The notes: a model not told the origin generated them from the letters alone. A stretch of DNA of 64,000 nucleotides from Gammaproteobacteria bacterium (GCA_022450155.1 JAKUQR010000014.1:2539-66538); one strand, 5' to 3'. Positions 13,470-44,793 are shown, numbered from the stretch's first letter. Numbers and translations are program-made.

Positions 13470-15362
13470 TTAGCCGGCAGCGTCACCTGCCGATCGCGTG
13501 ACCCACTTCTGAAACACCGGTGTCCTGGGTGGCTCTAACGTGGTGTCCGCCTTGCAACGCGCTTTGAGTTCCTCAACGGTTCCGCCAAAATTGAATAAAT
13601 CTACCTTGCCCCGTTCTGACGCCATCTGGCGGCGGAGATTCGCCGTCGCAGACTCATCCACAGACAGGTCGGACTGCAGCACCACGCCATAGCGTCGGCT
13701 ACCTTCCACGCTCACCAGACCCCGTTGCACATCGAGGGAGACTTTTCCAGCGTCACGTTCAAGCGGATCACCCCATCCACCACCACCCCAAGTATTGAAA
13801 TAAAGCGTATCACCTACCGATACCTTTATCCGATCACATTTGGATTTCATCCATTCGTTTTTGCCATCCGCCCGAACCATGAGCTTGTTGCTGCGCTGGC
13901 CCGGCAGACCGCCTTTCACACCCCAGGGATGGGTCAACCAGCGATCATCATGGATCGAGATTTCACCGGGTTCCAGGAACTGGTAACCCATCGATAAGCC
14001 ATTGCCCCCGCGATGCAGTCCGGGACCGCCACTGTCGGGTATGGTTTCATAAGTGACGATCCGAAGCGGAAAGTACGCTTCCAGAAACTCATTGGGGACG
14101 TTGGTAAAGGCCGGCCAAAGCGAATGGCCATCGGGGCCGTCACCTGCCGGGCGGCCCGGTATGCCGCCGAAACCGATCTGATAAAGCTGGTACCACTCCC
14201 CATTACTGTCGTAGCCGGAATACATGAAATGTGGGCTATCCGAGAAACCAGCCGCACAGAGCGCATCCGGCGATCCCTGGCCCAGCAGGCCACTCATGAT
14301 GTCAAAGATACGGCCCAGCATATGGGTGCGCGAACTCAGTGCCGCTGGACGAATGGGTTTAAGAATAGATCCGCGCGGTATTCGTACATCAACCAGATCA
14401 TAAAACCCATCGTTGAACAGAATTTGTGGATCGAACAGATTGATAAAAAATGCACCCAGAAACATCTTGAACATTTCTTCATTGAGCAGAAAATTGACCG
14501 AGCTGATGGATTGCGGGTCGGTACCTTCGAAGTCGAAGATGACTTTTTCACCTTCCCGCCACATCGTACAGCTGACTTTATAAGGCCCCATCCCCATGCC
14601 GTCGTCATCGATGTAGTCCTCGAAATGCTGCTTTTTCTCGGGGATGACCATATTCAGGATCGCACCCATGGCTCGCTTGTTCCGGTCGAGCATTTCCACC
14701 ATGGCAACCACCAACTCGTCGACCCCGAAGCGGTTCGCCATCTCGAGCACCCGGCGTTCAGCCAGTCTCAGTGCGGCTACAAGGGCATTGAAATCAGAAC
14801 GGTTCCAATCAGGCAAGCGGCAGTTTCTAAGAATAAGTTCGAGTATCTCGGTATTCAACTCGCCATTTCGAATGATCTTGACCGGGGGTACCTGTATACC
14901 TTCCTCAAACACCTGTGCCGCATCTGTCGGCAGACTGCCCGGCACCTTGCCCCCGATATCGGTCATGTGGCCGAACATCGCTGCCCAAGCCACCAGGCGT
15001 CCGTCGATATAAATTGGCATCATCATCAACCAGTCATTGAGGTGACTGACCGCCCCATTACAGGAGTAGGGATCGTTGGTCAGGAAAACATCTCCCTCTT
15101 CGATAGTGCCGTCATAACCCTGCTGGAACCCCCAGAAAAACGAGCCAAACTGACCAACCACCATCTTGCCCTCATGATTGGCAATCATGGGGAACGCATC
15201 ATGCTGTTCTCTAATACCGGGTGACATCGCGGTACGAAACAGCACAGCATCCATCTCACTGCGTGCGTTTCTGAGGGCGTTCTCGATAATATCGAGCGTG
15301 ACCGGATCAACTGTTATGCTTTGAAACGGGGTCGTATTACTCTGTATGACTTGTGCAGGCAT
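13470..15362 (-). CDS. hyuB: hydantoinase B/oxoprolinase family protein (HyuB), module 1
   Basis: 630 aa with full-length similarity to N-methylhydantoinase B / acetone-carboxylase alpha-type proteins. About 70% identical to the HyuB core of the module-2 gene. Confidence 0.9.
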   Translation of the reverse strand: MPAQVIQSNTTPFQSITVDPVTLDIIENALRNARSEMDAVLFRTAMSPGIREQHDAFPMIANHEGKMVVGQFGSFFWGFQQGYDGTIEEGDVFLTNDPYSCNGAVSHLNDWLMMMPIYIDGRLVAWAAMFGHMTDIGGKVPGSLPTDAAQVFEEGIQVPPVKIIRNGELNTEILELILRNCRLPDWNRSDFNALVAALRLAERRVLEMANRFGVDELVVAMVEMLDRNKRAMGAILNMVIPEKKQHFEDYIDDDGMGMGPYKVSCTMWREGEKVIFDFEGTDPQSISSVNFLLNEEMFKMFLGAFFINLFDPQILFNDGFYDLVDVRIPRGSILKPIRPAALSSRTHMLGRIFDIMSGLLGQGSPDALCAAGFSDSPHFMYSGYDSNGEWYQLYQIGFGGIPGRPAGDGPDGHSLWPAFTNVPNEFLEAYFPLRIVTYETIPDSGGPGLHRGGNGLSMGYQFLEPGEISIHDDRWLTHPWGVKGGLPGQRSNKLMVRADGKNEWMKSKCDRIKVSVGDTLYFNTWGGGGWGDPLERDAGKVSLDVQRGLVSVEGSRRYGVVLQSDLSVDESATANLRRQMASERGKVDLFNFGGTVEELKARCKADTTLEPPRTPVFQKWVTRSAGDAAG

Positions 15363-15387
15363 TAGTTGTTCTCTCAGGGCCCGAACA

Positions 15388-17772
15388 TTAATCCGGCCGG
15401 ATCAGCAGATTACCCACCGGGTCGACTTCGCCGGTACATCCCGGAAGTACCAATGTGGTTGAATCCATTTCGGTAACAATCGCAGGACCACGCACACGAT
15501 CACCCGCTTTCAGAAGCGCCCGGTCGAAAATTGTTGCATCGTGGTGCTGGCCTTCGTAGTACACCTTAGACTGCGCGTACTTGGCCACGGACGGATCACC
15601 GTTACCGCTCACTAGCATCTGTGCTTCCGCTGCACTTTCACTACCTTGGACCAGGGCACGCAGAGTGTAGAGTTCGCGCTCAGCGTCGAGCGCAAATGTA
15701 AACAGCTGTTCGTGCATCGAATCGAACCGTTTCCCCAGTTCGTCAAGACCGCCGGACTCAAAATCCTCTGGCGAGATCTCGACTGTGAGCCGCATCCCCT
15801 GTCCCGAATAGCGGAGGTCAATCTGGTACACCGTTGACTGATCTGACCTGGCCACGCCCTCGGCGTCCAGGGTTGCCGCAGCAGAACCCGCGAGTTCCTG
15901 AAGAATGCCCAGTGTTTCGGCGTCACTCGTCTCTGAAAACCGTCGAACAAAGGTGCGCGATGCTTCATCACGGACGCGGGTTGTCGCATCACCGTAAGCG
16001 CAGAGCACACCGGGTCCTGGTGGGATGATCACTGGCCACGAATTCATCAGTTTTCCCAGTGCGTTGGCATGCAGTGGCCCAGCCCCGCCAAAGGCGACCA
16101 GCGCAAAATCCCGCGGATCAAAGCCCTGCTCGACAGATACGAGCCGCAAGGCACCAAACATGTTTTCGTTGACAATGTTAACGATACCTTCGGCAGAATC
16201 ATGCAGCGACAAACCCATTGCCTTGCCAATGGTCTCAACGGCAGCCTCGGCCTTGCCAGCGTCCATATCCATTTCACCGCCGAGTTTCGCACTCTCAGGC
16301 AGATAGCCCAACACCACGTTGGCATCCGTAACAGTGGGTTCGGTACCCCCTTGACCATACGCTGCAGGACCGGGTTCCGCACCCGCACTCTGAGGACCAA
16401 CACGCAGCGCTTTGGTGAGTTCCGGCACATAGGCAATCGATCCGCCCCCGGCGCCGACGCTGCGCACATCGATCGATGACGACCGCACCGTCACATCAGC
16501 CACCCGGGTTTCACGCCGGGCACTGGCAACACCGTTCTGGATCAGTGCAACATCCGTAGAAGTTCCCCCCATATCAAAACTTAAAAGGTCGGTGTATCCG
16601 GCCTGCCGGGCAATCCAGATCGCGCCCGAGACGCCGCCAGCCGGCCCGCTCATCAGAAGGTTCACTGGTGTTTCTTTCGCGGCTTGGGCGGATGCCAGAC
16701 CACCGTCTGATCGAAGAATATGCAACTGCATGCCGCTCATCCTTCGATTGAGTTCTGCTTCGAGGTTCTCGATGTAGGTCGACACCACCGGTCTGATATA
16801 GGAGTTGACAACCGTGGTCTCGGTACGTTCGTATTCATACATCTCGGGCACAACTTCAGATGAAATAGAAATCGGAATGCCTGGAAATATGCCATCTGCG
16901 ATCTGACGCACACGTTCTTCGTGCGCACCATTGGCATAAGAATTCATGAGCGAGATTGTCAGTGCTTCTATCCCTTGCTGTGAAAGAGCCGTTAACGACT
17001 GCTTGAGCGCTTCTTCGTCCAATGGCTGGACGATCTCGCCTTTGGCCCCGATTCGCTCGTTGGCCTCTATGGTCAGCTCGAGGGGCGCCAGTGGCTCGCT
17101 CTTGTTAAAGATCACCCAACCGCCCAAACCGCCCGGTACATATGAACGAGCAATCTGGAGGACTTGCTTGTAACCCTTGGTGGTGACCAGGCCGACACGC
17201 GCACCGCTGGCGGTCAGCACCGTATTCGTGGCCACCGTTGTACCGTGCATCACGTGACTGATGTCCGCTAAAGACACGCCGGCCTGATCACAGACCCGTT
17301 CTATACCGTTCAGCACACCGATTGAGGAATCCTTTGGCGTGGACGGTACTTTCGCGGTAAAACTGCGCCCACTGGCTTCTTCAATCAACAGGATATCCGT
17401 GAACGTACCACCGACATCTGCACCCAATCGATAACCCGACTGACCCGTGGCACGTGGACGCGAGACCTGTGAGCGCTCCGCTGCGACCGGTCTTTTCGAT
17501 TCACGCGTACTCGGCTCGCCGCGGGCCGTAGTCGAATCCTGATGGCGGGCTTCCTCCGCCCGAGACGGGACAGCGGGAATGGTCTCCCGGGCTTGGGTCG
17601 TGTCTGTCTTCTTCGGAGACTCAAAGGACCTTGACTCTCTCTCAGTTGACTTCTTCGCTGGCTCACGTGAGCGTAAATCCTGTCTGCTCCGTGCCAGCTC
17701 AGCAAAATCATCTTTTGCTTTTCGCAACTGCGCATCAAACCACTCAGTGGACTTTCGGGAATCTTTACTCAT
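15388..17772 (-). CDS. hyuA: hydantoinase A/oxoprolinase family protein (HyuA), module 1, with a charged low-complexity N-terminal extension of about 115 aa
   Basis: The core GADVGGTFTD...HGTTVATN matches the HyuA N-terminal ATPase fold. The first ~115 aa are K/R/E/S/T-rich and no alternative start lies near the core. Confidence 0.85.
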   Translation of the reverse strand: MSKDSRKSTEWFDAQLRKAKDDFAELARSRQDLRSREPAKKSTERESRSFESPKKTDTTQARETIPAVPSRAEEARHQDSTTARGEPSTRESKRPVAAERSQVSRPRATGQSGYRLGADVGGTFTDILLIEEASGRSFTAKVPSTPKDSSIGVLNGIERVCDQAGVSLADISHVMHGTTVATNTVLTASGARVGLVTTKGYKQVLQIARSYVPGGLGGWVIFNKSEPLAPLELTIEANERIGAKGEIVQPLDEEALKQSLTALSQQGIEALTISLMNSYANGAHEERVRQIADGIFPGIPISISSEVVPEMYEYERTETTVVNSYIRPVVSTYIENLEAELNRRMSGMQLHILRSDGGLASAQAAKETPVNLLMSGPAGGVSGAIWIARQAGYTDLLSFDMGGTSTDVALIQNGVASARRETRVADVTVRSSSIDVRSVGAGGGSIAYVPELTKALRVGPQSAGAEPGPAAYGQGGTEPTVTDANVVLGYLPESAKLGGEMDMDAGKAEAAVETIGKAMGLSLHDSAEGIVNIVNENMFGALRLVSVEQGFDPRDFALVAFGGAGPLHANALGKLMNSWPVIIPPGPGVLCAYGDATTRVRDEASRTFVRRFSETSDAETLGILQELAGSAAATLDAEGVARSDQSTVYQIDLRYSGQGMRLTVEISPEDFESGGLDELGKRFDSMHEQLFTFALDAERELYTLRALVQGSESAAEAQMLVSGNGDPSVAKYAQSKVYYEGQHHDATIFDRALLKAGDRVRGPAIVTEMDSTTLVLPGCTGEVDPVGNLLIRPD

Positions 17773-17817
17773 GATCGGGTGGTGGTTAATGAATTGCTGT
17801 TCTTGTTGGCCACACAG

Positions 17818-18459
17818 TCACGCCTGGGAGGCGCTCCACGCTCTGATTCGATCGATTGCGTCGTCTGCTGTGGTCAGATCACAATAACGCCGTTCCACAT
17901 CTCTCAGATTATCCCGGTGAGGACCTTCCGCCTGATCGCCAACACAATCTTCCGGTACCAGGGTTCTGAATCCCCACTGAAAACAGTCGACGATCGATGC
18001 CCGTACGCAACCGGACGTTGTGCATCCCACCACATACACCGTATCGACCGATTCTTTATTAAAAAACGCTGCGGCCGGTGTCTGAAAAAACATCGAAGCA
18101 CCTGATTTCCGCATCGCCACGTCGTAATCAGGGACATAGGTTCGAGGATCAAGCTCTGTCGCTGCCCGCCCTTCGATCAGATCTTCCATCACTGCGGATA
18201 TCTTCCAGTACGGCATATCTCGTTTCGAATTATAGCCCGTGTAACAGGTTGCAACGGGCACACCATTCTCGCGGGCAACAGCAAGTAATCGCGCTGAATT
18301 CTCCACAGCCCGCTGGACCAGTGGCGACCCACCGAGCGTATACGACGGGTCAGTAAATCCAAGCTGGAAATCAACCACAGCAATACCGGGTTTGCTACCG
18401 AAACCGATGGTCTCGCTGCCATAGGAGCGTTCGCTGTAGACATCCCGCTGATCAGTCAT
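17818..18459 (-). CDS. isochorismatase-family cysteine hydrolase (N-carbamoylsarcosine-amidase/RutB-like), module 1
   Basis: VVGCTTSGCVRAS catalytic-cysteine motif. 213 aa. Lies immediately upstream of hyuA on the same strand. Confidence 0.85.
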   Translation of the reverse strand: MTDQRDVYSERSYGSETIGFGSKPGIAVVDFQLGFTDPSYTLGGSPLVQRAVENSARLLAVARENGVPVATCYTGYNSKRDMPYWKISAVMEDLIEGRAATELDPRTYVPDYDVAMRKSGASMFFQTPAAAFFNKESVDTVYVVGCTTSGCVRASIVDCFQWGFRTLVPEDCVGDQAEGPHRDNLRDVERRYCDLTTADDAIDRIRAWSASQA

Positions 18460-18509: not shown

Positions 18510-19466
18510 TCAGGCTTGAACAGAAGAAGCCACCTGACGAGCGATCACGTCGTCCGGGAATAAACCGGCCTTCATGACCTGTCCCGGCAGTGGATCATCG
18601 AAGTAGCCTTCTACCCAAGTCGCCACATTGATCAGCTGCGGCAGATCAATACCCGTTTCATAACCCATGTTGCGTAGGATATAAACCAGATCTTCGGTCG
18701 AAATATTACCGGTCGCCCGGGGTGCGAACGGGCATCCACCGATACCGCCAACAGAAGCATCAAGAATACGCACGCCCGACTCCACTGCGGCGACCGCGTT
18801 TGCTATTCCTGTGTTGCGGGTGTTATGGAAATGACAGCCGACAGCGACGGAGTCGCCCAGCGCCGACTGCAGCGCCTCCACACGCTGTCGAACCTGACTG
18901 GGCACCGCACAACCGATCGTATCGGCCAGCAGAATCTCGTCTACACCCAGGGCCTGCAGGCGAATGCCGATATCAACCACCGCTGAAGTCGTGACCTCGC
19001 CTTCAAACGGACAGCCAAAGGATGCGCCAATTACTGCCGAAAACACTTTGCTGGATGCATTGACCCGGCCAGCGATCGACTCCAGGCCGGTCATCGTCTC
19101 AGCGATGCTTGCCCCCTGGTTTTTTTGGTTGAAAGTCTCACTGGCGACCACCACGTAGCGCACCTCGTCGACACCCGCATCGAGTGCCCGTTCTACACCT
19201 TTCATATTAAGTGCAAGCCCTGCAATCCGCACGTTCACCTTGCGCTCTATCTGCGCCATGACTTTTTCCGCATCCGCCATTTGCGGCACCCGCTTTGGAT
19301 TGACAAAACTGACCGCCTCGATCCGCTGGATACCGGTATTCGCGAGACGATTGATAAGGTTAACTCGCTCAGCCACGCTCCAAATACGTTTTTCGCTCTG
19401 TAGCCCGTCACGCGCAGCGACATCACACACAGAAATACGGTTCTTACCGCTAGATGATGCCGTCAT
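18510..19466 (-). CDS. HMG-CoA lyase-like (DRE-TIM/HMGL-like) lyase
   Basis: DVAARDGLQ start and the HxH metal site (CHFHNTRNTG) typical of HMGL-like aldolases/lyases. Confidence 0.85.
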   Translation of the reverse strand: MTASSSGKNRISVCDVAARDGLQSEKRIWSVAERVNLINRLANTGIQRIEAVSFVNPKRVPQMADAEKVMAQIERKVNVRIAGLALNMKGVERALDAGVDEVRYVVVASETFNQKNQGASIAETMTGLESIAGRVNASSKVFSAVIGASFGCPFEGEVTTSAVVDIGIRLQALGVDEILLADTIGCAVPSQVRQRVEALQSALGDSVAVGCHFHNTRNTGIANAVAAVESGVRILDASVGGIGGCPFAPRATGNISTEDLVYILRNMGYETGIDLPQLINVATWVEGYFDDPLPGQVMKAGLFPDDVIARQVASSVQA

Positions 19467-20682
19467 TTTTCAGCTCCTGTAATTCAGCCTGGGTCATACC
19501 CAGCAGGCCGCAGTAGATCGCTTCATTGTGGGCGCCGACTTCAGATGAACCCAGCCACGCGGTCTCGCTCTTGGTTTCGCTCAGCACCGGAACAAAACCT
19601 GGCACCGCAATATCGCCAAGCTCATCATCCTGGTAACGCTGGATCATATCGCGGGCCTGATAGTGCGGGTCATTGGCGATGTCTTCTATCGTATAAATCG
19701 GACCGGATACCACGCCATACTGATCCAGTCGTGTATCCAGTTCGGTCGCTGTCAGTTCACGTGTCCAGTCGGCAATCCGGGCATCGAGTTCATCACAGTT
19801 CTCTCCGCGCGCCTGATGCGTATTGTATCGAGGGTCATCCGCCAGCTCCGGCTGCTCCATCGCATCACACAATCGTTTGAACATCGTATCCAGATTTGCC
19901 GCGATAACCACCCATTTTTCATCTTTGGTCGGAAATATATTCGACGGTGAGACATTGGCAAGGCCGGTGCCACTGGGCTGCCGGATAAAACCGACCTTGT
20001 CGTACTCCAGCAGTGCACTTTCCATCATTGCAAAGCACGACTCGGTGATGGAGGCATCAACAACCTGACCCTTGCCCTGGCCAATGGTATCGCGCCAGTA
20101 CAATGCCATTAGCACTCCCTGGGTCGCGAACAAGCCAGCCAGAGAATCACCCAGGGATATACCGGTTCGTGGGGGGGGTTGATTCGGAAACCCATTGATA
20201 TATCGAAGTCCACCCATCGCTTCACCGACACTGGCGAAGCCCGGTCGGTTCGAATAGGGACCTGTCTGCCCGAAACCGGATACACGCGCAATTACGAGCC
20301 CGGGGTTGATGGCATGCAGCGCCTCAGGCGCGAATCCCCACTTTTCCAGCGTTCCCGGCTTGAAATTCTCGACCAGCACATCTGCTGTTTCTATCAGCCG
20401 GCGCACCAGATCCTGACCCCGTTTTTCCCGAAGATTAGCCGAGACGGTTTTCTTGTTCCGCGCAAGAATTGGCCACCAGAGACTTCGACCCTTGTAACGA
20501 TGATGGCCCCAGTGCCGCATGGCATCACCCCGACCCGGGCTCTCGACTTTGATCACCTCGGCACCAAAATCGGCCATACGAGATCCGACGAAAGGCCCGG
20601 CCACAAGCTGTCCCATTTCGATCACCCGGACGCCGGATAGTGGCCCCTTCAACCGGTCATCAGCAGACGTGTGTTCAGCCAT
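19450..20682 (-). CDS. family III CoA-transferase (CaiB/BaiF family)
   Basis: GVRVIEMGQLVAGPF...ADFGAEVIKVE N-terminal signature of class III CoA transferases. The start was set at the internal ATG 20682 (MAEHTSADD...), which has an AGGA RBS. The gene overlaps the downstream lyase start by 17 nt. Confidence 0.85.
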   Translation of the reverse strand: MAEHTSADDRLKGPLSGVRVIEMGQLVAGPFVGSRMADFGAEVIKVESPGRGDAMRHWGHHRYKGRSLWWPILARNKKTVSANLREKRGQDLVRRLIETADVLVENFKPGTLEKWGFAPEALHAINPGLVIARVSGFGQTGPYSNRPGFASVGEAMGGLRYINGFPNQPPPRTGISLGDSLAGLFATQGVLMALYWRDTIGQGKGQVVDASITESCFAMMESALLEYDKVGFIRQPSGTGLANVSPSNIFPTKDEKWVVIAANLDTMFKRLCDAMEQPELADDPRYNTHQARGENCDELDARIADWTRELTATELDTRLDQYGVVSGPIYTIEDIANDPHYQARDMIQRYQDDELGDIAVPGFVPVLSETKSETAWLGSSEVGAHNEAIYCGLLGMTQAELQELKNDGII

Positions 20683-20779
20683 CAGCGCATCCTTACAGCG
20701 TGTCGTGGATCGTGTGATTGTATAGAAAGCAGCGGTTCTATTCCCATTGCATTGTTTCCGACCGTTACTGCCATCCTGC

Positions 20780-21583
20780 TCAATGCTTTTCGAGAAAAGA
20801 AAACAGAATATTGCAAAACTCAATCTTCTGGGCTTTGCCCGCAACCACATGTGCCGTGTTTTCCATCGTCACACCTTCAGCGCCAGAAATACCCTGTTCA
20901 ATCGGCAACGTGGTTCGTGGGCTGGTGACCATGTCCTTCGCTGCATGGATCACCAGCGTCGGTGTAGTGATATCTTTAAGTCTATTGGTCGTATCGTGTG
21001 TAAGGCAGGCATCAACCAACCGTTCGTGGGTCACATAGTTGTCTCTCAGTTCGCCCCACTCGCCGTCCGGACCAAGCAACCGATGCTTGTTCTGGTTGTA
21101 GAACTCCGGCAGAAAGGAGTAGATACAGACGAACTGCTGAAAAGCATAGAAACCGACTTCCCGATGCACTGTTCTGAACAGTTTCAGCTGATCACGAAGG
21201 TAGTCATCAACCGACGACCATGCCCCCATATTCACCATGCTTCTCACCAGTTCAGGTCGACTCAGTGCAACCTCCTGTGCCACACCACAACCCATACCGA
21301 CCAGGCCGATGAGATGTACCTGTTGCCAACCCAGTTGATCAAGCAGACCGATAAGATCAGCCGCGTAAAGTTTCATCGAGGCGGGAATATGCAGATCATC
21401 TCTGGATTGAGCGATACCGCGATAATCAAAAACCAGTACTTGATATCTGTCGGTCAGTCCCCGGGCCAGGCCGCGACCATCTTTGTGACAATAAGTCCCC
21501 CAGCCTCCCATACAGACTGCGGGTTCACCTTCACCGTGTATCTCGTAGTACACCTGAATGTTATTGACTGTGGCAATAGGCAA
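20780..21583 (-). CDS. alpha/beta-hydrolase fold protein
   Basis: ATVNNIQVYYEIHGEGEP... N-terminus, a GxGxG nucleophile-elbow region (GLVGMGCG) and a C-terminal His. The long 354-aa ORF to 21844 has a Cys/Arg/Trp-rich N-terminus that looks non-coding. The start is provisionally TTG at 21583. Confidence 0.6.
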   Translation of the reverse strand: MPIATVNNIQVYYEIHGEGEPAVCMGGWGTYCHKDGRGLARGLTDRYQVLVFDYRGIAQSRDDLHIPASMKLYAADLIGLLDQLGWQQVHLIGLVGMGCGVAQEVALSRPELVRSMVNMGAWSSVDDYLRDQLKLFRTVHREVGFYAFQQFVCIYSFLPEFYNQNKHRLLGPDGEWGELRDNYVTHERLVDACLTHDTTNRLKDITTPTLVIHAAKDMVTSPRTTLPIEQGISGAEGVTMENTAHVVAGKAQKIEFCNILFSFLEKH

Positions 21584-21815
21584 CTTAATTCTACTTTTGT
21601 TTTCTGTATCGCCTCTGTAGAGTTGGCATCGCCAGCCATCGCGTCCGTAGCGCGCATCGGGCCCTGAATGCCAAATCCAACCGACAGCTCGGCATCTTAA
21701 AAGGTAAGGGTCACCCAATTCAACCAAAGAGGTACGGCAACGCACTTGGCACGGGGCCACCTGTGTTATGGTGACTGACTCTGGCTGAATACTACAAACG
21801 TCGAGGTCTAGCGGC

Positions 21816-35312: not shown

Positions 35313-35314
35313 GA

Positions 35315-36602: not shown

Positions 36603-37898
36603 TCAAGCGGTCAGGAATTCAGTCCAGCGCTTAACCAAATAGTCGTTCTCTTTCATCAACGAATTCCAGACACCGATGTTAGAAAAGCGGTCCAAGTAAG
36701 ACCCACCGTCGCGTACTTCCCCCTTTGGCACCAATGGATTACCAAACGGATCCATAAGCTCTTTCGCTGCCGCCTTACCCATGTACCAGTAGTCCCACTC
36801 TTCAGGCTCGAGGTACTTTTTAACATTCTCAGTTGGAGACATGTAGTATCCCTGACGGGCAACGAATGCCCCTGCCCATCCCTCCAGCCACCAATTGATG
36901 TACTCATAAGCTTGATCGAGCTTCTTGCCGGATACTTTGTTCGAGATCGAAAGCCCACCATGCCAACCTCGGTAACCTTCTTTGAGATCTGCATAGACAC
37001 AGGGGACACCTTCAGCACGGATCGCCGTCACCGCTGGCGACCACAAACTCTGAACAACAACTTCGCCCGATACCATGAGGTTGACTGACTGTCCAAACGT
37101 TTCCCAGAAGGCCCTAAAATGGCCTTCGCGTTTCTTCTCAATGAGAAAATCCATCAAAATATCGATTTCCCCGCGTGTCATATCACCTTTGTCTCCAAAC
37201 TTGACCAGACCTATGGCCTCCGCTCCCATCGCTGCATCCATCACTCCGATTTGCGGCACGTTCAGCAGTGCAACGCGACCCCGGAACTTCTCGTCAAAGA
37301 GCGATCCCCAGCTCTCCAGCTTTCCACCGGTCTCTTCCGGGTTGTAGCCCAGGGTGTCCGCATTGTGCCAAGTTGGAACAGCCGATACCCAGCGTGTCGG
37401 ACCCTCAACCAAGTCACCACTTTCGTTAAGCCACAACTTACGGAAAGGTGCATCACCGTCACCTTCCTTAGAATCAGGCGTCAACTTACCGGTCTTGCTC
37501 AGATCAGAGATCGAATCCCATTCTTTGACCCGCGTCGTATCTGTTGGATGCCAAACTTTTGCGGGAATAAACACGTCGAAGTCATTGTAGTAACCTTCAG
37601 CGATATCGTATTGATCGTTCTGGTTCAACATCTTCCCGAACATAGCGCCATAACCAAGCGCCTGACCACGAATCTCAAACCCCAGATCCTTCGACGCCTG
37701 ACTTTGAATCTCGTTGATGATGCTGACACCAAGTCCAATGGTGCGCAAAGGTTCATTTCCCGTTGATATGTACGGGAAACTGGCTGCCACGGTGCCCGCA
37801 GCCACAGCTTTTGCCGTCGTCCCCATAAACTGCCGGCGGGTTACTGCGGAACCGCTTTTAATTGCAGTCCGCTTTTTAATATTATCTACCATCTTCAC
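36603..37898 (-). CDS. ABC transporter periplasmic substrate-binding protein (PotD/PotF-like, family 1) with Tat-type signal
   Basis: N-terminal TRRQFMG twin-arginine motif followed by a hydrophobic h-region. 431 aa solute-binding fold. Confidence 0.85.
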   Translation of the reverse strand: MKMVDNIKKRTAIKSGSAVTRRQFMGTTAKAVAAGTVAASFPYISTGNEPLRTIGLGVSIINEIQSQASKDLGFEIRGQALGYGAMFGKMLNQNDQYDIAEGYYNDFDVFIPAKVWHPTDTTRVKEWDSISDLSKTGKLTPDSKEGDGDAPFRKLWLNESGDLVEGPTRWVSAVPTWHNADTLGYNPEETGGKLESWGSLFDEKFRGRVALLNVPQIGVMDAAMGAEAIGLVKFGDKGDMTRGEIDILMDFLIEKKREGHFRAFWETFGQSVNLMVSGEVVVQSLWSPAVTAIRAEGVPCVYADLKEGYRGWHGGLSISNKVSGKKLDQAYEYINWWLEGWAGAFVARQGYYMSPTENVKKYLEPEEWDYWYMGKAAAKELMDPFGNPLVPKGEVRDGGSYLDRFSNIGVWNSLMKENDYLVKRWTEFLTA

Positions 37899-38029: not shown

Positions 38030-38497
38030 TCAGGCGTGAGCCGGTCGTATCAACTTCAACAACCAGAAAATAACACAGAAAATGCCCGTTATGGTCACCA
38101 AGGCAATGGTTGCGGCAATTCTTTTGCCAAAATTTGAATCGAACGCGTAGCCGTTCTGGAGTAAATACACGCACAAGTTTTGAACAGCCTGCAGAGTTGC
38201 TCCGCCACTCAGCAAAATAACGATAAATGTTGAACCACGAAGAGAAGTTAAAACCATTGATTCAACACTGCGCTGCTGAACGATATGAACTTTGTAAGCA
38301 TGCCAGTGGAACGTGCAAAACCCGATGATGCCGATGATGAGGGCAACCCAGAATATCGCATTACTGTAACTGACCCCGGTTAACACCAAGGTGAACAGAT
38401 CTTCAAACGGCTGGAAGAAATACAAAAAAATCAATACCAGTATGAGCAGGAGAAATCCTACTAACGTCCAGAACCACTGCCATCCTGCCATCGCCAC
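38030..38497 (-). CDS. four-helix integral membrane protein, paralogue of 25428..25940
   Basis: Same topology and the same conserved motifs as 25428..25940. Last gene of the module-3 operon. Confidence 0.65.
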   Translation of the reverse strand: MAMAGWQWFWTLVGFLLLILVLIFLYFFQPFEDLFTLVLTGVSYSNAIFWVALIIGIIGFCTFHWHAYKVHIVQQRSVESMVLTSLRGSTFIVILLSGGATLQAVQNLCVYLLQNGYAFDSNFGKRIAATIALVTITGIFCVIFWLLKLIRPAHA

Positions 38498-38660: not shown

Positions 38661-39716
38661 TTAGGGTGCGGCACCCAATAACAGGATACCGTAAAGAACG
38701 ATAAAAACTGTGTCGCGAACCGCACCACCACCCTGCCTTTGCGACCCCCGGGTGGCGATCAAAGCAATGATCTCAATGACCATGAATAGGATTGCCAGAA
38801 TGGCGAACGGCCAAACCGAAGACCACCAGGGTAGGGTCTCAACTACATCCTCGACTGCATGAACCCATTGCCAAATGTAGAGCAGAACGGGTGTCAAAGC
38901 AAAATAGCCGTAGGCAACGAGAAAGCGGTATCGAGTAACCTTCCGATCCACCAGCCAGAACACAAAAAAGAAAAGAACCAGGTTCAAAAGATCCCAAAAC
39001 AAAGCATTGTAGGACTCGGCTGCAGCGAACTGGATCAGATTTAGGAAGCCAAGAAACACAAGAAAAACTGCTGCATCACAAAATACCCATTCTCTGAACG
39101 GTTCACCTTTAGCCTTGATCGACCAGGCTCGTGTTGCTTTGTCGAACAACAGAACCAGTGCCACACCCAGAACAGCCGGATAGATCAGACTGGCCATCAA
39201 TCGATACTGGCCGACCGTGTCCACATACACCCAGTTCAGGACCAGAAACGCCAACACCAAAACGAGTAAGCCAAGTAAACGAGTACCAGCCGGTGTCTGG
39301 ACAGGATCAGGCGCCGACGAAGCCGAACCCGACTCGGTTGCAGCCACTGGTTTGTCCGTCCGACGACGAGCAAACATACCGATCACAAACGCGACCAATG
39401 CCCCCAGGCCGACGACCATCATCGCCACCAGAAAGATCATCGATCGGGTCCCTCCCCGCCAGGCAGTCTCGTGTGCTATTCCTGAGGGGTACAGAAAAAC
39501 AATCACCACGATCACTGCAACAACCAGTGCAACCAGTGCCAAAACTGCGAGTAGGTATTCAAACCAGCGTTGACCTGAGGAAGGCCCGCTTCCAGAGGTG
39601 GTGTCGACAGATAGCCCTTCTTTATTGCGTACCACAAGATAAATGACGAATACAACCACGCCAATCAGGGCGAGAGCGGTCATCACCAGGACAAACGTCA
39701 GCGGTTGTGTTTCCAA
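38661..39716 (-). CDS. polytopic integral membrane protein, uncharacterised
   Basis: 351 aa with ~9 hydrophobic helices and two short Ser/Gly-rich loops. Immediately downstream of module-3 hyuB. Confidence 0.55.
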   Translation of the reverse strand: METQPLTFVLVMTALALIGVVVFVIYLVVRNKEGLSVDTTSGSGPSSGQRWFEYLLAVLALVALVVAVIVVIVFLYPSGIAHETAWRGGTRSMIFLVAMMVVGLGALVAFVIGMFARRRTDKPVAATESGSASSAPDPVQTPAGTRLLGLLVLVLAFLVLNWVYVDTVGQYRLMASLIYPAVLGVALVLLFDKATRAWSIKAKGEPFREWVFCDAAVFLVFLGFLNLIQFAAAESYNALFWDLLNLVLFFFVFWLVDRKVTRYRFLVAYGYFALTPVLLYIWQWVHAVEDVVETLPWWSSVWPFAILAILFMVIEIIALIATRGSQRQGGGAVRDTVFIVLYGILLLGAAP

Positions 39717-39785: not shown

Positions 39786-41930
39786 TCAGTCGTTTTGCAG
39801 AAGTTTTTGTGCACATTTAACAAAGCTCTGTTCAGCCGCAGTCTGTAGCCGCTTCCCAGCAGAATAACCCGCCCCGGCATGTTCATGTGTGCCGGTCTCG
39901 CTGGCATAGGCCCCGTTGGCCCGCAATTCGCCTCGCACCTCGGTCAGGCTACGATTTGACGTATGGTAGACAATGTCGAAGCTCCAGTTGTCCCCGAACG
40001 TACCACGCAACTGGGAGATCGTCGACGCCACAGTCTGATCGGCTTCAAGAGACTTTGCGGGCTGCACAGGCTCGGATACCCGGGCACCAACACGGTCGCG
40101 CTGGGCGGGTGTCTCCCTGGCTACTTGTTGCACCTTGCGCTCTGGCGCTGAAGTGGTCGCCAGCGGTTGGCTGCGCATCTGCGTCCGTAGCGATTCTGTC
40201 GCAGACTCGTCCACGGTTTCCGTGGTGAGATCTACGACCACGCCGTACGCTTTTCTCGCGTGTTCAACCGTGCAGAAATCATCCAGAACGTCTTCGAGTA
40301 CCTGACTTGCCGGGCGTTCGAGCGGATCGCCATAACCACCGCCGCAGGGTGCATAAAACGCATGCACATCGCCAGCATTGATTTTGATGCCCGAAAACTT
40401 GGCTGGCATATCCTGGATATTATCGGGATCTGACACATTGTAGATCTCGACTTTGCCGGTTGCACCTGGCCCACCACCAAAAATACCCCAGGGGACATCG
40501 TGGTGCCTTTCGTTCTCGTGGGTAATAAATGCGTCAGTCAGAACGCGCTGCGACTTCACGACACCGATCCCACCCCGGTAACGGCCCGCACCGGGCAATA
40601 CGTCGTCACGCAATTCGTACCGATCACAGATCATTGGCAGGTGAATGGCCAGGTCTTCGAGGGGATTATTCCGGGTATTGGCCATCAGGTTATCAATACT
40701 GTCCGGACCGTCAGATCGCGGGCGTCCACCGTAAGCCCCTTCGTTTACCTCCAGGAAAACCCAATAATCACCAGACGGCCGGATACCGGAGTACGACACA
40801 AATGACAATGATGCCGAACTGCCAGCGATAATCTCATCCGGCAGGACAGGTGCCAGTGCCTTATAGATCAGATCGATCATGCGATTGCACTGCGTAAATC
40901 TGGCCTCAGCTGCCGCAGGAAACTTTGGATTGAAGATTGAGCCCTTGGGCGCGATCACTTTGATCGGTCTGAAAGACCCTTCATTTGAGGGTACCTCGAT
41001 CTCGGACGTATGCGCATCAAGCAGCAGGGAGCGAATTGCGCAAAAACACGCCACTTTCGTCGATCCGTCAAAAGGCACATTAAAACCCGTTTCCACCTGG
41101 TCGGCCGATCCTGTGAGATCAATTTCTATGCCATCGCCCTGGATCCGGACGCACACCTTGATTGGCAGCCGGACACCTCTGTTTTTGCCATCATCGTCAA
41201 GAAAGCCTTCGGCACGGTACTCACCGTCCGGTATTGTTTCAATCTTCTGCCGCAGTATTCGCTCGGTGTAATCCATCAGCTGCTGCGTTGCTGACAGTAT
41301 CTGGTCTTTGCCGTAGCGTTCCATCAGTTCAACAAACCGTCGCACGCCCAACTTCGCCGAGGCGATCTGGGCTTCGATATCGCTCTGTAGCTGTTTCGCC
41401 GCCCGGCTGTTTCGACCCAGGAACTCCCACATGGCCTCATTGCGAACACCTTTCTCGTACAGCTTGGTACCGGCAAATAACATGCCTTCGGCAAACACAT
41501 CTGGAATGTCGATAATCAGACCCGGAGTTGCCGCCCCGATATCCAGGTGATGAGCCGTGTTCGCCGCGAACCCGACCAACTCTCCCTTATAAAAGCAGGG
41601 AATAACGATCGCGAGGTCTGGCGAATGGCTGGCACCATAGTAAGGATGGTTATGGAGAACGACATCGCCTTCGTTCCAGGTGCCCCCCTGCAGGGTTTCC
41701 TGAATGCCATATAAGTATCCCGGTAGAGATCCTATATGCAGTGGTGTTGATTCGGATTCACACAGGGTATTGAAATCGGTATCGAAAAGACCTGCCCCAA
41801 GGTCTTGCGACTCACGAATGATCGATGAGAACGACATCCGGTACAGAATATGGCCCATCTCCTCGGCGATGGTATCCAGCGCCCCGCTGATAACCTGCAG
41901 AGTGATCGGATCGAGTTCGTCTGACGGCAT
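39786..41930 (-). CDS. hyuB: hydantoinase B family protein (HyuB), module 3, with a C-terminal HyuB-associated domain after a Ser/Pro/Ala/Gln-rich linker
   Basis: HyuB core from MPSDELDPITLQVISGALDT... to about aa 575. A linker follows, then ...QLRGTFGDNWSFDIVYHTSNRSLTEVRGELRANG...AAEQSFVKCAQKL. Confidence 0.9.
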   Translation of the reverse strand: MPSDELDPITLQVISGALDTIAEEMGHILYRMSFSSIIRESQDLGAGLFDTDFNTLCESESTPLHIGSLPGYLYGIQETLQGGTWNEGDVVLHNHPYYGASHSPDLAIVIPCFYKGELVGFAANTAHHLDIGAATPGLIIDIPDVFAEGMLFAGTKLYEKGVRNEAMWEFLGRNSRAAKQLQSDIEAQIASAKLGVRRFVELMERYGKDQILSATQQLMDYTERILRQKIETIPDGEYRAEGFLDDDGKNRGVRLPIKVCVRIQGDGIEIDLTGSADQVETGFNVPFDGSTKVACFCAIRSLLLDAHTSEIEVPSNEGSFRPIKVIAPKGSIFNPKFPAAAEARFTQCNRMIDLIYKALAPVLPDEIIAGSSASLSFVSYSGIRPSGDYWVFLEVNEGAYGGRPRSDGPDSIDNLMANTRNNPLEDLAIHLPMICDRYELRDDVLPGAGRYRGGIGVVKSQRVLTDAFITHENERHHDVPWGIFGGGPGATGKVEIYNVSDPDNIQDMPAKFSGIKINAGDVHAFYAPCGGGYGDPLERPASQVLEDVLDDFCTVEHARKAYGVVVDLTTETVDESATESLRTQMRSQPLATTSAPERKVQQVARETPAQRDRVGARVSEPVQPAKSLEADQTVASTISQLRGTFGDNWSFDIVYHTSNRSLTEVRGELRANGAYASETGTHEHAGAGYSAGKRLQTAAEQSFVKCAQKLLQND

Positions 41931-41954
41931 AGTGTACTGTCTCGCTAGCGGACT

Positions 41955-44033
41955 TTAATTGCTGCGCTCGATTGTCAGGTTTCCGAATTCCCCAGTCTGT
42001 GCGACGTACCCGGGAGGAATCAGAATGGTCGAGTTGTGCTGAATAATGATGGCTGGCCCCGAGACCGCATGACCGGCCAGGAGTTTGTTTCGATCGTAAC
42101 GCGGCGTCTGAAGAGTTTGCTTGTCGTCGAAAACGGTCTCCGCATGATAAAGCAGCGCATCCTCGGGCGTGTTCGCCGTACCGGCCTGATCCAGAGGCGA
42201 TACCTCCAGCGGCGTCACCCGCTCCATGCCAATGACACGGATTGTGATCAGCTCGACTTCACCATCTTCAAAGGTATAACCATAATCCAGGTGATGTTGA
42301 GCATGAAAACCCTCGACAATTTTAGAAATGTTCTCTGGCACGATATCGATATCTGGAATTGGCGCGCGCAACTCAAAACCTTGTCCGTGATAACGACATT
42401 CCGCGATACGCTGAAACTCCTGACGAGCCGTAGGTACGCCGTCCTTCTCGAGGTCCCGACGGCATTCAGATACCAGTTCTTTGACTAGACTGTTAATTCG
42501 GTCACTCGTCTCAGTCGAGGTATTAGAAAGTGATGTAATCAGCGAGCGGGCGTGCTCGTACTGCATATCGGTCTGTAAAAGCCCCATGGCGGCGGTGATG
42601 CCCGGTGCCACAGGGATAATGACATTTTTTGCAAATACGGCCTCTGCAAGGGCCACACCGTGCAGCGGTCCGGCCCCACCGAACGGCAGCAGTGAAAACT
42701 CACGGGGGTCCACACCCCGGGCAACTGAATTAGACCGAATCGCCAGTGCCATATTTGAATTAATCACCTTGATGATCCCCAGTGCTGCGTCAGTCACTGA
42801 GATATTAAGTGGCCGGGCGATCTTGGTCTCAATCGCGCGCTGTGCCAGGTCTCTATCCAGAGGCAGATCCCCGCCCAGCATCTTGTCCGTATCAAGTCGC
42901 CCCAGAACCACCTGGGCATCGGTTACCGTGGGTTCCTCTCCACCGCTGCCATAGCATGCAGGACCCGGGTCGGCCCCGGCAGAGCGTGGCCCGACATGGA
43001 AGCCACCGGCGGAGTCGACGTAAGCGACCGAACCGCCACCTGCGCCGATCGTAACTAGATCAATCATCGGGACCAGTATCGGATGGCCACTAACATAGGA
43101 ATCGCGGGCATTCATGATCTTGATCTGACCGTCAGGAATCGTGCTGATGTCTGCGGAGGTGCCGCCGATGTCTACCGTGATCATGTTGCGGCTGCCGCAC
43201 CACAGCCCCTCCGATTTCCCCCCAATCACTCCCCCCGCGGGGCCCGACATCAACATGGTCACCGCACGTTGCGAACAGGCCTCTACCGTGGAGATGCTTC
43301 CATTGGACTGCATCACCCGGAGATTGGCTCGGTATCCCTGGCCAATGAGTTTTTCCCGAAGATTGTTTAGGTAATAAGTAGTACTCGGCCCTACGAACGC
43401 GTTCATCGCTGCAGTGGAAAATCGCTCGTACTCACGCAGTACATTGGCGACATCCGAGGAGGTGCAGACGAAGGCTCCAGGCATTTCCTGCTCGACAATC
43501 ACCTTTGCCTGCCGTTCATGGACGTCGTTTAGAAATGAAAACAGGAAACCGATGACCACGGATTCGATACCACGCTTTTTGAACAACGCAATCGCTTCGA
43601 GCACTTCATTCTCATTCAGAGGTTCCTCGATCTCGCCTGTAGGCGGCAAGATGCGTTCCGTGACCGCTATACGGTTGCGCCGCTTGACCAATGGACGGCT
43701 CTGCCAAGGGACATCGAAATGAAGAGAAAAATTGTGTGGTCTCTTGTGCCGGCCAATATGAAGGATGTCTCTGAAATTTCGGGTAGTGATCATTCCCACC
43801 TCTGCCCCATTGTGTTCAAGGGTGACGTTGGTAGCGACCGTGGTTCCATGAACGATCAGATCAATCTGATCTGAGTTGACGCCAGCCTGCTCGCAAAGTT
43901 CGGACAATCCTTTCAACACACCTTCGGACTGGTCATGAGGAGTGCTGCTGACCTTGTGGAAATAAACCCCGTGATCGGCCTCCAAAACCAGATCTGTGTT
44001 GGTCCCGCCCACGTCAACGCCAACTCTAGCCAT
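41955..44033 (-). CDS. hyuA: hydantoinase A/oxoprolinase family protein (HyuA), module 3
   Basis: MARVGVDVGGTNTDLVL... canonical start. 692 aa. Confidence 0.9.
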   Translation of the reverse strand: MARVGVDVGGTNTDLVLEADHGVYFHKVSSTPHDQSEGVLKGLSELCEQAGVNSDQIDLIVHGTTVATNVTLEHNGAEVGMITTRNFRDILHIGRHKRPHNFSLHFDVPWQSRPLVKRRNRIAVTERILPPTGEIEEPLNENEVLEAIALFKKRGIESVVIGFLFSFLNDVHERQAKVIVEQEMPGAFVCTSSDVANVLREYERFSTAAMNAFVGPSTTYYLNNLREKLIGQGYRANLRVMQSNGSISTVEACSQRAVTMLMSGPAGGVIGGKSEGLWCGSRNMITVDIGGTSADISTIPDGQIKIMNARDSYVSGHPILVPMIDLVTIGAGGGSVAYVDSAGGFHVGPRSAGADPGPACYGSGGEEPTVTDAQVVLGRLDTDKMLGGDLPLDRDLAQRAIETKIARPLNISVTDAALGIIKVINSNMALAIRSNSVARGVDPREFSLLPFGGAGPLHGVALAEAVFAKNVIIPVAPGITAAMGLLQTDMQYEHARSLITSLSNTSTETSDRINSLVKELVSECRRDLEKDGVPTARQEFQRIAECRYHGQGFELRAPIPDIDIVPENISKIVEGFHAQHHLDYGYTFEDGEVELITIRVIGMERVTPLEVSPLDQAGTANTPEDALLYHAETVFDDKQTLQTPRYDRNKLLAGHAVSGPAIIIQHNSTILIPPGYVAQTGEFGNLTIERSN

Positions 44034-44112
44034 GACGCACTACCCGGAAGCTCACGGTTAATAAAATGAGGTGGCATTTACTGTTCATGACGTACCCGAC
44101 AACAATTCTCCT

Positions 44113-44793
44113 TCAGCTCGATTTATCAAGGTTTCCCAGATAACGCAACACATTCTCCAACGGCTCTACATCACCGAACTTGGCATCAATATCAAACAGG
44201 TTCCATTCGGTCACGGCAGGTACCCGGTCTCCGACCGCTTCACGCACAATGATCGGTCGAAATCCTTCGGCGATGGCATCTTCTGTAGTGTGCCGTACAC
44301 AACCCGCCATGGTCACGCCAGTAATAATCACCGTATCAACATCATGCGCACGTAGAAATCCGGCCAAATAGGTTCCATGAAATCCACTTGCCCGTTTTTT
44401 TACGATCACTAGTTCATCGCCCCGAGGCGCAATCCGCTCGTCGATGGCACAGGTCTCGGTCCCAGCCTGCAACAACTCTACCGGAATTTTTTTGTGCCAG
44501 AGTCCCATGTCGGAAGGATGTCCGCTCGTGACATCATACGCAGTGGTCGTATAGACAATTGGTATACCGGCTCCACGAGCTGCCTTGAGTAGTGCTTGTG
44601 TCGACGGGATGATCACATCCATGTTGTCGCAATAAAACACGTTACCCGGTCGTGTCCAGGCATTGGCCAAATCAATATTGAGCAGCGCGGGCCGCTCTCC
44701 ATACCCAATTCGGCGCTGAAAGCCCCGCTCCTGGTATAGCGCAGAATCAATCGCAAATATTTTGTCTAATGCGTCCTGAATTTCGTCTGACAT
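44113..44793 (-). CDS. isochorismatase-family cysteine hydrolase, module 3
   Basis: IITGVTMAGCVRHT motif with a K/D context shared with the other two copies. Lies upstream of hyuA on the same strand. Confidence 0.85.
   Translation of the reverse strand: MSDEIQDALDKIFAIDSALYQERGFQRRIGYGERPALLNIDLANAWTRPGNVFYCDNMDVIIPSTQALLKAARGAGIPIVYTTTAYDVTSGHPSDMGLWHKKIPVELLQAGTETCAIDERIAPRGDELVIVKKRASGFHGTYLAGFLRAHDVDTVIITGVTMAGCVRHTTEDAIAEGFRPIIVREAVGDRVPAVTEWNLFDIDAKFGDVEPLENVLRYLGNLDKSS

Follow-up and report, generated by a model that had tools for sequence, protein, structure and literature searches.

A 64,000-nucleotide stretch of DNA from a Gammaproteobacteria bacterium (GCA_022450155.1, JAKUQR010000014.1:2539-66538), hereafter the window, carries three gene triads (modules 1 to 3), each encoding an isochorismatase-family cysteine hydrolase (I1 to I3), a HyuA subunit (A1 to A3) and a HyuB subunit (B1 to B3). 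On balance, we favour reading the region as a nitrogen-scavenging island, in which three active, anciently diverged and ATP-dependent HyuAB enzymes would open cyclic substrates, each together with an isochorismatase-fold cysteine amidase. Following the chemistry of these families, HyuA would spend ATP to bring a cyclic amide into its activated lactim form, which the metal site of HyuB would then hydrolyse. The carbamoyl or amide group thus exposed would be released by the cysteine hydrolase as NH3, together with CO2 in the carbamoyl case. Judging from sequence comparison, only the module 3 pair appears to be a credible N-methylhydantoinase (NMHase) among the three, and this module would most likely convert an imported N-methylhydantoin-like hydantoin to an amino acid such as sarcosine. 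Modules 2 and 3 together make up a single locus, whose two halves are contiguous in other genomes, while module 1 is part of a separate, widely transferred cassette. The substrates of all modules, like the physical association of the accessory proteins, are what we infer from the comparisons below, in which related loci and contigs from other genomes and metagenomes are designated L001-L096.

The listing of open reading frames (ORFs) and Pfam searches bore out the three triads that an earlier reading of the same DNA (the original prediction) had proposed. Hydantoinase_B was found in all three HyuB proteins, Hydant_A_N, Hydantoinase_A and Hydant_A_C in all three HyuA proteins, and Isochorismatase (PF00857) in I1, I2 and I3, with E-values across the triads of 1e-27 to 1e-155; Pfam detected these domains in no other window ORF of at least 130 aa. 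Pairwise identity between copies is 36–48% for HyuA, 31–52% for HyuB and 27–46% for the isochorismatases. The copies are thus diverged paralogues, as had been proposed, and the 27–52% range rules out recent duplication, although the identities of about 35–70% first estimated were too high at their upper bound. An assembly artefact was also ruled out, because the module 3 gene order is found on six independent metagenomic contigs (L001-L006, corresponding to about 34-55 kb of the window) and a further locus, L007, is syntenic with the window at 12.8-25.4 kb, with protein identities of 42–91%. Base composition is even across the region. Intergenic gaps are short, at 45 nt (I1-A1), 25 nt (A1-B1), 79 nt (I3-A3), 24 nt (A3-B3) and 14 nt (A2-B2). 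I2 is not co-directional with A2 and B2 and belongs to a divergent operon, u170-I2-u148-Redoxin. Promoter and terminator scans were not used as evidence, given that shuffled sequence held more promoter-like sites than the real one and that terminator-like sites were mostly intragenic. The source organism has a cosmopolitan distribution in marine metagenomes, with 425 blocks of an assembly collection indexing an exact match to I3.

The ATP-binding motifs DxGGTxTD, DxGGT and GxxPGP are kept in A1, A2 and A3, and the Asp/His/Asp/His metal ligands in B1, B2 and B3, both sets being as defined for caprolactamase (PMC8453981). Against the solved NMHase 7hk5, A3 scored 624 bits (residues 1-687) and B3 609 bits (residues 701-1277), compared with 388 and 216 bits, respectively, against the caprolactamase 6yra. 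The corresponding scores were 449 and 375 bits for A1 and 434 and 366 bits for A2, and the lowest PDB bit scores of the HyuA and HyuB proteins were those to acetophenone and acetone carboxylase subunits (Apc and Acx). Neighbour-joining trees were built with 200 bootstraps, PDB sequences being represented by the aligned parts from the PDB-search alignments. In these trees, 7hk5 paired with A3 (45% identity, bootstrap 96%) and with B3 (52% identity, bootstrap 100%), while A1 was sister to A2 and B1 to B2, each at 100% bootstrap. The A1/A2 branch joined that of NMHase and A3 at 100% bootstrap, with CapA, Apc and Acx outside, A1 and A2 being only 36% identical to 7hk5. Acx and Apc formed the outermost branches and no HyuAB pair grouped with either, in keeping with the N-methylhydantoinase-like role that the original prediction had set against that of a carboxylase. 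Among NCBIfam models, the best for all six subunits were those of caprolactamase CapA/CapB (209-568 bits against a cutoff of 1000), and the Apc models reached 109-327 bits against cutoffs of 1250-1500. The module 3 pair is accordingly orthologous, by sequence, to the solved NMHase.

The Asp-Lys-Cys triad is intact in I1, I2 and I3, as well as in 85 related sequences, except for two truncated ORFs with a gap at the Asp column. The region around the Cys reads GCTTSGCVRA in I1 and I2 and GVTMAGCVRH in I3. I3, which is 58.7% identical (268 bits) to the Arthrobacter N-carbamoylsarcosine amidase (CSHase) 1nba and has copies at 74–75% identity in distant high-GC genomes, is an orthologue of that enzyme. 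I2 is 51.2% identical to 26st, a solved chain named N-carbamoylsarcosine amidohydrolase, and I1 shows 28–39% identity to 1nba, 26st, 4l07 and 3ot4, its best solved match being 4l07 at 36%. Twenty-five residues past the Cys, I2 (VGDRADGPH) and I3 (VGDRVPAVT) carry the Arg of a GDR motif, which we take to be Arg202 of 1nba, presumably the residue that binds the substrate carboxylate. In I1 a Gln stands in its place (VGDQAEGPH), and in a tree of the 85 related sequences I1 falls in a distinct clade, across which this position is Q, H, A, V or M. The RutB and BiuH equivalog models gave 27-53 bits, against cutoffs of 378 and 370. The analogy with NMHase plus CSHase, as in creatinine degradation, had initially been extended to all three modules. 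It is right for module 3 (624 and 609 bits for the HyuAB subunits and 59% identity for the amidase) and reasonable for module 2 (51% identity of I2 to 26st), but I1 is not CSHase-like, as its GDR Arg is replaced and its identity to CSHases is 28–38%; creatinine degradation as such would be no more than a possibility, there being no creatinine deaminase or creatininase in the window.

Several points weigh against the reading of the region as a ring-opening and deamidating island with an NMHase-type module. Library scans of the window proteins found no creatinine deaminase, creatininase or creatinase, and none of the HyuA and HyuB proteins comes near the cutoff of any NCBIfam equivalog. As fourth metal ligand, B3 has His but 7hk5 has Gln. 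The HyuA and HyuB trees contain few reference sequences, without bacterial OplAB, and the node that places B1/B2 with respect to NMHase and CapB has a bootstrap of only 9%. Because I1 lacks the GDR Arg, a carbamoyl-amino acid or maleamate would be unlikely as its substrate, and the end product of the 3-hydroxy-3-methylglutaryl-CoA (HMG-CoA) type envisaged for module 1 has family-level matches as its sole basis. In addition, a D-hydantoinase gene in L094 and an Asp_Glu_race-family gene in L096 hint at 5-substituted hydantoins or dihydropyrimidines, not N-methylhydantoin, as substrates around I3-type amidases.

These two genes bear on a tentative alternative, somewhat unlikely in our view, in which module 3 and its transporter unit would act on 5-substituted hydantoins or dihydropyrimidines from seawater rather than in an N-methylhydantoin/creatinine route, with the same chemistry but another substrate and another ecological meaning. 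L094 carries the unit without HyuAB (I3 75% identical, u351 48%, u155 74%, the solute-binding protein 73% and the permeases 72–85%), and a dihydropyrimidinase/D-hydantoinase (TIGR02033, 614 bits against a cutoff of 393) takes the place of the HyuAB pair. In L095 and L096, I3-type genes (74–75% identity) adjoin a HyuAB gene whose product, as in Arthrobacter, is a single fused protein (1286-1298 aa). In L096 the Asp_Glu_race-family gene lies between the two and belongs to a family that includes hydantoin racemases, although its protein matched no NCBIfam model. The absence of creatinine-specific enzymes from the window and the presence in it of an M20 hydantoinase/carbamoylase-family amidase (52195-53403) would also fit this alternative. 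Against it stand the 59% identity of I3 to the characterised Arthrobacter CSHase, the specific pairing of A3 and B3 with the solved NMHase, and a sarcosine-dehydrogenase-like gene near I3 and the fused HyuAB in L095. The ring opened by module 3 could be N-methylhydantoin or another hydantoin or dihydropyrimidine. On either reading, the non-orthologous replacement of the ring opener around the same amidase-transporter unit supports a logic of import, ring opening and then decarbamoylation, the last two steps being those that the original prediction had put forward. In sponge-symbiont Rhodospirillaceae loci, the transporter-u155-u351 unit flanks an A1B1-type pair, mostly with an I3-type amidase.

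Upstream of I3, a luciferase-like (LLM-class) oxidoreductase gene is possibly a further member of the module 3 unit. An LLM gene also lies beside I3-type and NMHase-type HyuAB genes in L095 (7946-8965) and L096 (13316-14004), so that the arrangement occurs in three distant lineages. A conserved partnership was not retained, given that the resemblance is at family level only, with 28% identity and different TIGR subfamilies.

The original prediction had treated the three modules as independent and equivalent, which does not hold for modules 2 and 3; the three substrate specificities that it suggested are putative. In L087-L089 (61–70% GC) the module 2 core is contiguous with an isochorismatase gene, a u148-like gene and A3-type (74–76% identity) and B3-type (70–72%) genes, often with a single amidase for both HyuAB pairs (I2-type in L089, I3-type in L087). 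The full order in L089 is A2, B2, Band_7 and an ATP-binding cassette (ABC) ATPase on one side, diverging from u170, I2, u148, A3, B3, u351 and u155, followed by a permease. In the window, the ATPase of the module 3 permeases is the last gene of the module 2 operon. Taken together, the locus encodes two pairs of HyuAB subunits with one or two amidases, besides an ABC importer, a small domain, an SPFH protein of large size and proteins that have four and nine predicted transmembrane (TM) segments but no Pfam family. Module 3 (I3-A3-B3) has the same transcription direction as the genes for the 9-TM and 4-TM proteins and the ABC importer, and module 2 (A2-B2, u170, SPFH protein, ABC ATPase, I2 and u148) would be its conserved partner and not a separate system.

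The accessory genes named earlier for each module are all real and conserved elsewhere, yet the sets were incomplete, since a membrane protein belongs to module 2 as well. This protein, u170 (170 aa), and u155 (155 aa) are related (blastp E 3e-28) and both have about four TM segments; at least 499 homologues of u170 were found, none of them with a Pfam domain. In all six contexts of the core (L087-L092), u170 is divergent from HyuA-HyuB and a Band_7 protein of 851-938 aa is encoded downstream, with one or two genes between HyuB and Band_7 in L087, L090 and L091 and an ABC ATPase after Band_7 in L088, L089, L090 and L092. In the 854-aa Band_7 protein of the window, a coiled coil is assumed from composition. 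u351 is 41–48% identical in L089 and L094, lying in both between the enzyme genes and u155, and u155 itself is 56% identical in L089. A redoxin gene stands beside a u148 homologue in L007, L010 and L014.

The contiguity of A2B2 and A3B3 in L087-L089, with one amidase in common, and the small domain carried by both B2 and B3 would also be expected if the two pairs were subunits of one hetero-oligomeric enzyme, in the fashion of acetophenone carboxylase, whose core complex has two HyuA-like and one HyuB-like subunits (PDB 5l9w; PMC5214803). We consider this quite improbable, given that in L090-L092 no A3B3-type pair lies less than 9 kb from the A2B2/u170/Band_7 core, that the A3B3 type is fused and alone in L095 and L096, and that each pair has the full set of ATP and metal motifs.

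Variants of the module 2 frame were also seen. In L014 (CAJQRU010000072.1), modules 1 and 2 adjoin, as I1-A1-B1, Redoxin-u148-I2-u170 and HyuA-HyuB-Band_7. The second HyuAB pair there is only 41–45% identical to A2/B2, compared with 67–74% for I2, u170 and Band_7, and may be a substitute for the original pair in a frame that was conserved. Genes for DMF_alpha and DMFA2_C (N,N-dimethylformamidase subunits) and ABC permeases adjoin the u170/HyuAB/Band_7 core in L090 (11841-14409) and L091 (15987-18555), and in L090 so do SBP_bac_8 genes. In three loci (L087 9749-12487; L088 9713-12059; L092 9525-12066), a polysaccharide-deacetylase-family gene, a gene for an unknown protein of about 110 aa and one for a CobW GTPase are placed between u170 and the amidase. 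The polysaccharide-deacetylase family is that of the allantoinase PuuE.

The small domain occurs in three forms: free (u148), fused N-terminally to HyuB2 and fused C-terminally to HyuB3. It had been listed as an accessory of module 2, where u148 is indeed present, but the HyuB3 copy shows that it is not confined to that module. In profile-profile comparisons with hhalign, u148 matched the B2 N-terminal extension with 98.6% probability (E 5.5e-16; blastp E 2e-8), the B3 C-terminal extension matched that of B2 with 97.3% (E 1.9e-11), and the B3 extension matched u148 with 90.3% (E 1.5e-6). A profile of u148 homologues alone found the HyuB2 N-terminus and not the HyuB3 C-terminus, the latter link being made by profile-profile comparison. 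u148 has no Pfam or NCBIfam match; a profile search of 1.84 billion representatives yielded 197 clusters, mostly of 140-200 aa, and a few of 750-780 aa with the domain N-terminal. In the AlphaFold2 model of u148, the predicted local distance difference test score is about 90 in the domain and the linker is disordered. Foldseek comparison of this model with the PDB returned only weak Rad52-like and double-stranded-RNA-binding-domain-like matches (TM 0.3-0.57), and no function was inferred. The HyuB2 N-terminal extension is conserved in L088, L089 and L092, and B2 orthologues without the domain still have the N-terminal helix, S-[LF]-D-x-L-[LIV]-x-x-N-x-x-Q-[FL]-[DN]. A1 and many of its orthologues likewise begin with a helix and a low-complexity linker. 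We speculate that the helices and the small domain might serve in protein-protein docking, possibly to the SPFH protein.

For module 1, a one-genome-per-species scan with the B1 and B2 alignment gave 80 loci from Alpha-, Beta- and Gammaproteobacteria, with B1 orthologues at 70–91% identity. Neighbours were counted within 10 kb of the module-1-type HyuAB pair in the 58 loci holding at least 15 kb, by comparing ORFs with the window proteins. An isochorismatase gene was present in 45 of the 58, often in the same operon and in varying order, a frequency that argues against a chance linkage between isochorismatase and HyuAB. An HMGL-type lyase was found in 30/58, any family III CoA-transferase in 45/58 (24/58 at 40% identity or more), one or the other in 47/58, and the alpha/beta hydrolase of module 1 in 16/58. 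Given that gene order and orientation vary between loci, the linkage is argued to be functional. A minimal cassette is present on a conjugative plasmid of Acidiphilium multivorum, where genes for a major facilitator superfamily transporter, a GntR regulator and an HMG-CoA lyase are divergent from CoA-transferase-HyuA-HyuB-isochorismatase. Its HyuA and HyuB are 66% and 71% identical to those of module 1, its isochorismatase has the GDR motif, and the Prokaryotic Genome Annotation Pipeline gives its genes family-level names only.

From this gene content we infer a degradation chain, with the substrate given at family level only: a cyclic imide or ureide would be opened to a half-amide or carbamoyl acid and deamidated to a dicarboxylate, presumably of the C5 type, which the CoA-transferase would activate as a CoA ester and the HMG-CoA-lyase-family enzyme would cleave in an aldol-type reaction. 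The best NCBIfam model for the CoA-transferase was succinate-glutarate CoA-transferase, below cutoff (250 bits against 750). PcaD and RutD each gave about 78 bits, also below cutoff, for the alpha/beta hydrolase, whose homologues elsewhere often adjoin I1-type genes. The amidase-signature enzyme between modules 1 and 2 is 67% identical in L007, and an amidase 35% identical to it is encoded between u155 and u351 in sponge-symbiont loci.

An N-terminal extension similar to that of HyuA1 is common among its orthologues. In many HyuA proteins of the module 1 type, a short helix (e.g. DDVVKMYESRLGELERRLAQLE) comes first and a Pro/Ala/Arg-rich linker follows, as in residues 1-114 of the window HyuA1 and in L007, L014, L027, L029, L031, L033, L035, L068 and L085; others start straight at the ATP-binding motif. 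The closest relatives of the window B1 are labelled Acidiferrobacteraceae or Gammaproteobacteria. B1 orthologues in metagenome-assembled genomes of Alphaproteobacteria (sponge-associated Rhodospirillaceae; L008-L025) are 83–87% identical to it, which is unusually high across classes and suggests horizontal transfer of module 1. At window positions 8245-13394, a gene for a 1523-aa Lhr-type helicase (plus strand) converges on a LigT/2',5'-RNA-ligase-family gene (minus strand) that ends the module 1 strand, and the same Lhr/LigT pair follows B1 in L007.

It is very unlikely that one or more of the HyuAB pairs are acetone/acetophenone-type carboxylases, lactamases or 5-oxoprolinases with the isochorismatases as unrelated neighbours: CapA/CapB are the best NCBIfam models, albeit below cutoff, the B1/B2 placement relative to CapB has 9% bootstrap and I2 is divergent from A2B2, but no pair groups with Acx or Apc, to which PDB bit scores are lowest, library scans of the window proteins revealed no small carboxylase subunit among the neighbours, and the isochorismatase lies within 10 kb in 45/58 related loci.

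The island reading may be taken further, to a joint view that we regard as doubtful: a membrane-organised ring-opening machine alongside a mobile HyuAB/amidase/CoA-transferase/HMG-CoA-lyase-type cassette, both undescribed. In the machine, HyuB proteins that carry the small domain or have it alongside, with the N-terminal helix, would act with the SPFH protein as a scaffold and with family-specific 4-TM and 9-TM proteins to link the uptake of a cyclic ureide by the ABC importer to two ATP-dependent ring openers working one after the other, while the cassette would turn a cyclic imide or ureide into a 3-hydroxy-dicarboxylyl-CoA and then cleave it. In the literature searched, we found no description of a two-HyuAB locus with an SPFH protein, membrane proteins and the small domain, nor of a HyuAB/amidase/CoA-transferase/HMG-CoA-lyase cassette or route.

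Module 3 belongs to an already known enzyme pairing, that of CSHase with hyu genes. It shares domains, catalytic motifs and gene adjacency with the Arthrobacter NMHase (7hk5/9h03, fused, 1288 aa) and CSHase (1nba). Unlike the Arthrobacter NMHase, however, it has two separate subunits, an extra C-terminal small domain in HyuB3 and His rather than Gln as the fourth ligand, and it differs from the Arthrobacter pathway in its setting, beside an importer of the ABC type and two membrane proteins as yet unnamed, with no creatinine deaminase nearby. For I1, the solved structures 3ot4 and 4l07, which we take to be the maleamate amidohydrolases NicF and Ami, offer another comparison, with nicotinate and nicotine catabolism: the best match of I1 is 4l07, the alpha/beta hydrolase of the operon recalls the pairing of the deformylase NicD with NicF, and amidases that have the GDR Arg, in other cassettes of the module 1 type, group near NicF. 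I1 is nevertheless only 36–39% identical to NicF and Ami, has Gln for the GDR Arg, and no ring-cleaving dioxygenase is present. Classical hydantoin use (D-hydantoinase/dihydropyrimidinase plus carbamoylase; HyuA/HyuB/HyuC/HyuE of Pseudomonas sp. NS671) follows the same scheme of cyclic-ureide opening and then decarbamoylation, but its carbamoylase is of the M20 or nitrilase type, whereas here it would be an isochorismatase-fold cysteine hydrolase.

In Corynebacterium glutamicum ATCC 14067, adjacent and divergently transcribed cshA and hyuB were assigned to creatinine degradation on the basis of sequence similarity, induction on creatine and AmtR control (PMC8864220). There, too, a CSHase-like gene stands beside a hyu gene, under nitrogen control; that genome has one module, with creatininase and CodA elsewhere, whereas the window has three modules and other accessory genes. 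The caprolactamase CapAB of Pseudomonas jessenii (6yra; PMC8453981) has the same two-subunit architecture, ATP motifs and metal site, but the A subunits of the window group with NMHase, and the caprolactam route has no cysteine amidase. In sponge microbiome studies, hyu and CSHase genes have been counted as creatinine degradation (PMC6742649), a routine label for Hyu genes in marine metagenomics as well. Considering that two of the three pairs here lie in conserved but uncharacterised clusters, one of which is carried by a conjugative plasmid elsewhere, caution against a blanket Hyu annotation is warranted. The modules suggest testable routes by which oligotrophic bacteria might obtain nitrogen and, with module 1, also carbon from cyclic amides. 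For this well-known class of enzymes, candidates for accessory components that would be new are the small domain, the membrane-protein families of u155/u170 and of u351, and the SPFH protein that goes with them.

Table 1. Features of the three modules and their accessory genes, in window coordinates.
Module	Feature	Coordinates	Strand	Basis or remark
1	HyuB1 (B1), metal-site subunit	13470-15362	minus	Hydantoinase_B E 9e-147; D/H/D/H ligands
1	HyuA1 (A1), ATP-binding subunit, 114-aa N-terminal extension (helix and low-complexity linker)	15388-17772	minus	three HyuA domains (Pfam)
1	I1, isochorismatase-fold Cys hydrolase, GDQ for GDR	17818-18459	minus	PF00857
1	HMG-CoA-lyase-family lyase	18510-19466	minus	HMGL-like; NF004283 316 bits against cutoff 246, full length
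1	Family III CoA-transferase, likely start near 20682	19450-20850	minus	CoA_transf_3 E 3e-120
1	Alpha/beta hydrolase, PcaD/RutD-like, start probably downstream of 21844	20780-21844	minus	Abhydrolase_1
	Amidase-signature enzyme between modules 1 and 2	21816-23213	plus	PF01425 E 3e-101
2	Redoxin/peroxiredoxin-like, two-domain	23257-24156	minus	Redoxin and AhpC-TSA
2	u148, free small domain	24197-24643	minus	N-terminal helix, linker, helix + three strands + helix
2	I2, CSHase-like Cys hydrolase	24671-25390	minus	PF00857; D-K-C triad, GDR
2	u170, about 4 TM, paralogue of u155	25428-25940	minus	no Pfam match
2	HyuA2 (A2)	26255-28321	plus	three HyuA domains (Pfam); ATP motifs
2	HyuB2 (B2), 176-aa N-terminal extension with u148-type domain	28336-30636	plus	Hydantoinase_B at residues 178-692
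2	SPFH/Band_7 protein, 854 aa	30719-33283	plus	Band_7; one N-terminal TM segment, long charged-residue-rich region
2	PotA-like ABC ATPase, presumed module 3 permease partner	33308-34396	plus	ABC_tran; NCBIfam PotA-like
3	Two ABC permeases	34485-35312, 35315-36301	minus	BPD_transp_1; 72–85% identical in L094
3	Periplasmic solute-binding protein	36603-37898	minus	SBP_bac_8; 73% identical in L094
3	u155, about 4 TM, paralogue of u170	38030-38497	minus	TM scan; 74% identical in L094, 56% in L089
3	u351, about 9 TM, no family	38661-39716	minus	no Pfam/NCBIfam match; TM scan
3	HyuB3 (B3), NMHase-type, C-terminal u148-type domain (about 620-714)	39786-41930	minus	Hydantoinase_B (Pfam); 7hk5 match
3	HyuA3 (A3), NMHase-type	41955-44033	minus	three HyuA domains (Pfam); 7hk5 match
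3	I3, N-carbamoylsarcosine-amidase orthologue	44113-44793	minus	PF00857; 1nba match
	Luciferase-like (LLM-class) oxidoreductase upstream of I3	45023-46129	minus	Bac_luciferase; TIGR03619 188 bits against cutoff 167

Outside the modules, the window has many genes for the chemistry of amide and ureide nitrogen. Members of the RutA, RutB, RutD and RutE families are present, and a Rut-pathway reading was rejected as every match is far below its equivalog cutoff. Divergent from the LLM-I3-A3-B3 operon, at 46188-47793 on the plus strand, the gene for an amidase that passes the NCBIfam model PRK08310 (427 bits; cutoff 391) shares 8 nt with the gene for an AtzH-like/HpxZ-like protein, which scored 131.7 bits against a cutoff of 135 for the HpxZ-like 'oxalurate catabolism' protein; nitroreductase, cupin and PPOX-type flavoprotein genes follow. 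Three PhyH-family dioxygenase genes lie at 3287-3820, 6376-7518 and 51263-52084, and PhyH and TauD genes are also found near the related loci L090 and L094. At 55155-61466 on the minus strand, a urea-type ABC transporter (UrtD-, UrtC-, UrtB- and UrtA-like) is headed by a 780-aa fusion of a UrtE-like ABC ATPase and a full amidase (829 bits to PRK07235), an architecture that suggests uptake coupled to the hydrolysis of a small amide. Adjoining this transporter, a second SPFH/Band_7 protein, a 548-aa flotillin, is encoded at 61522-63168 on the minus strand.

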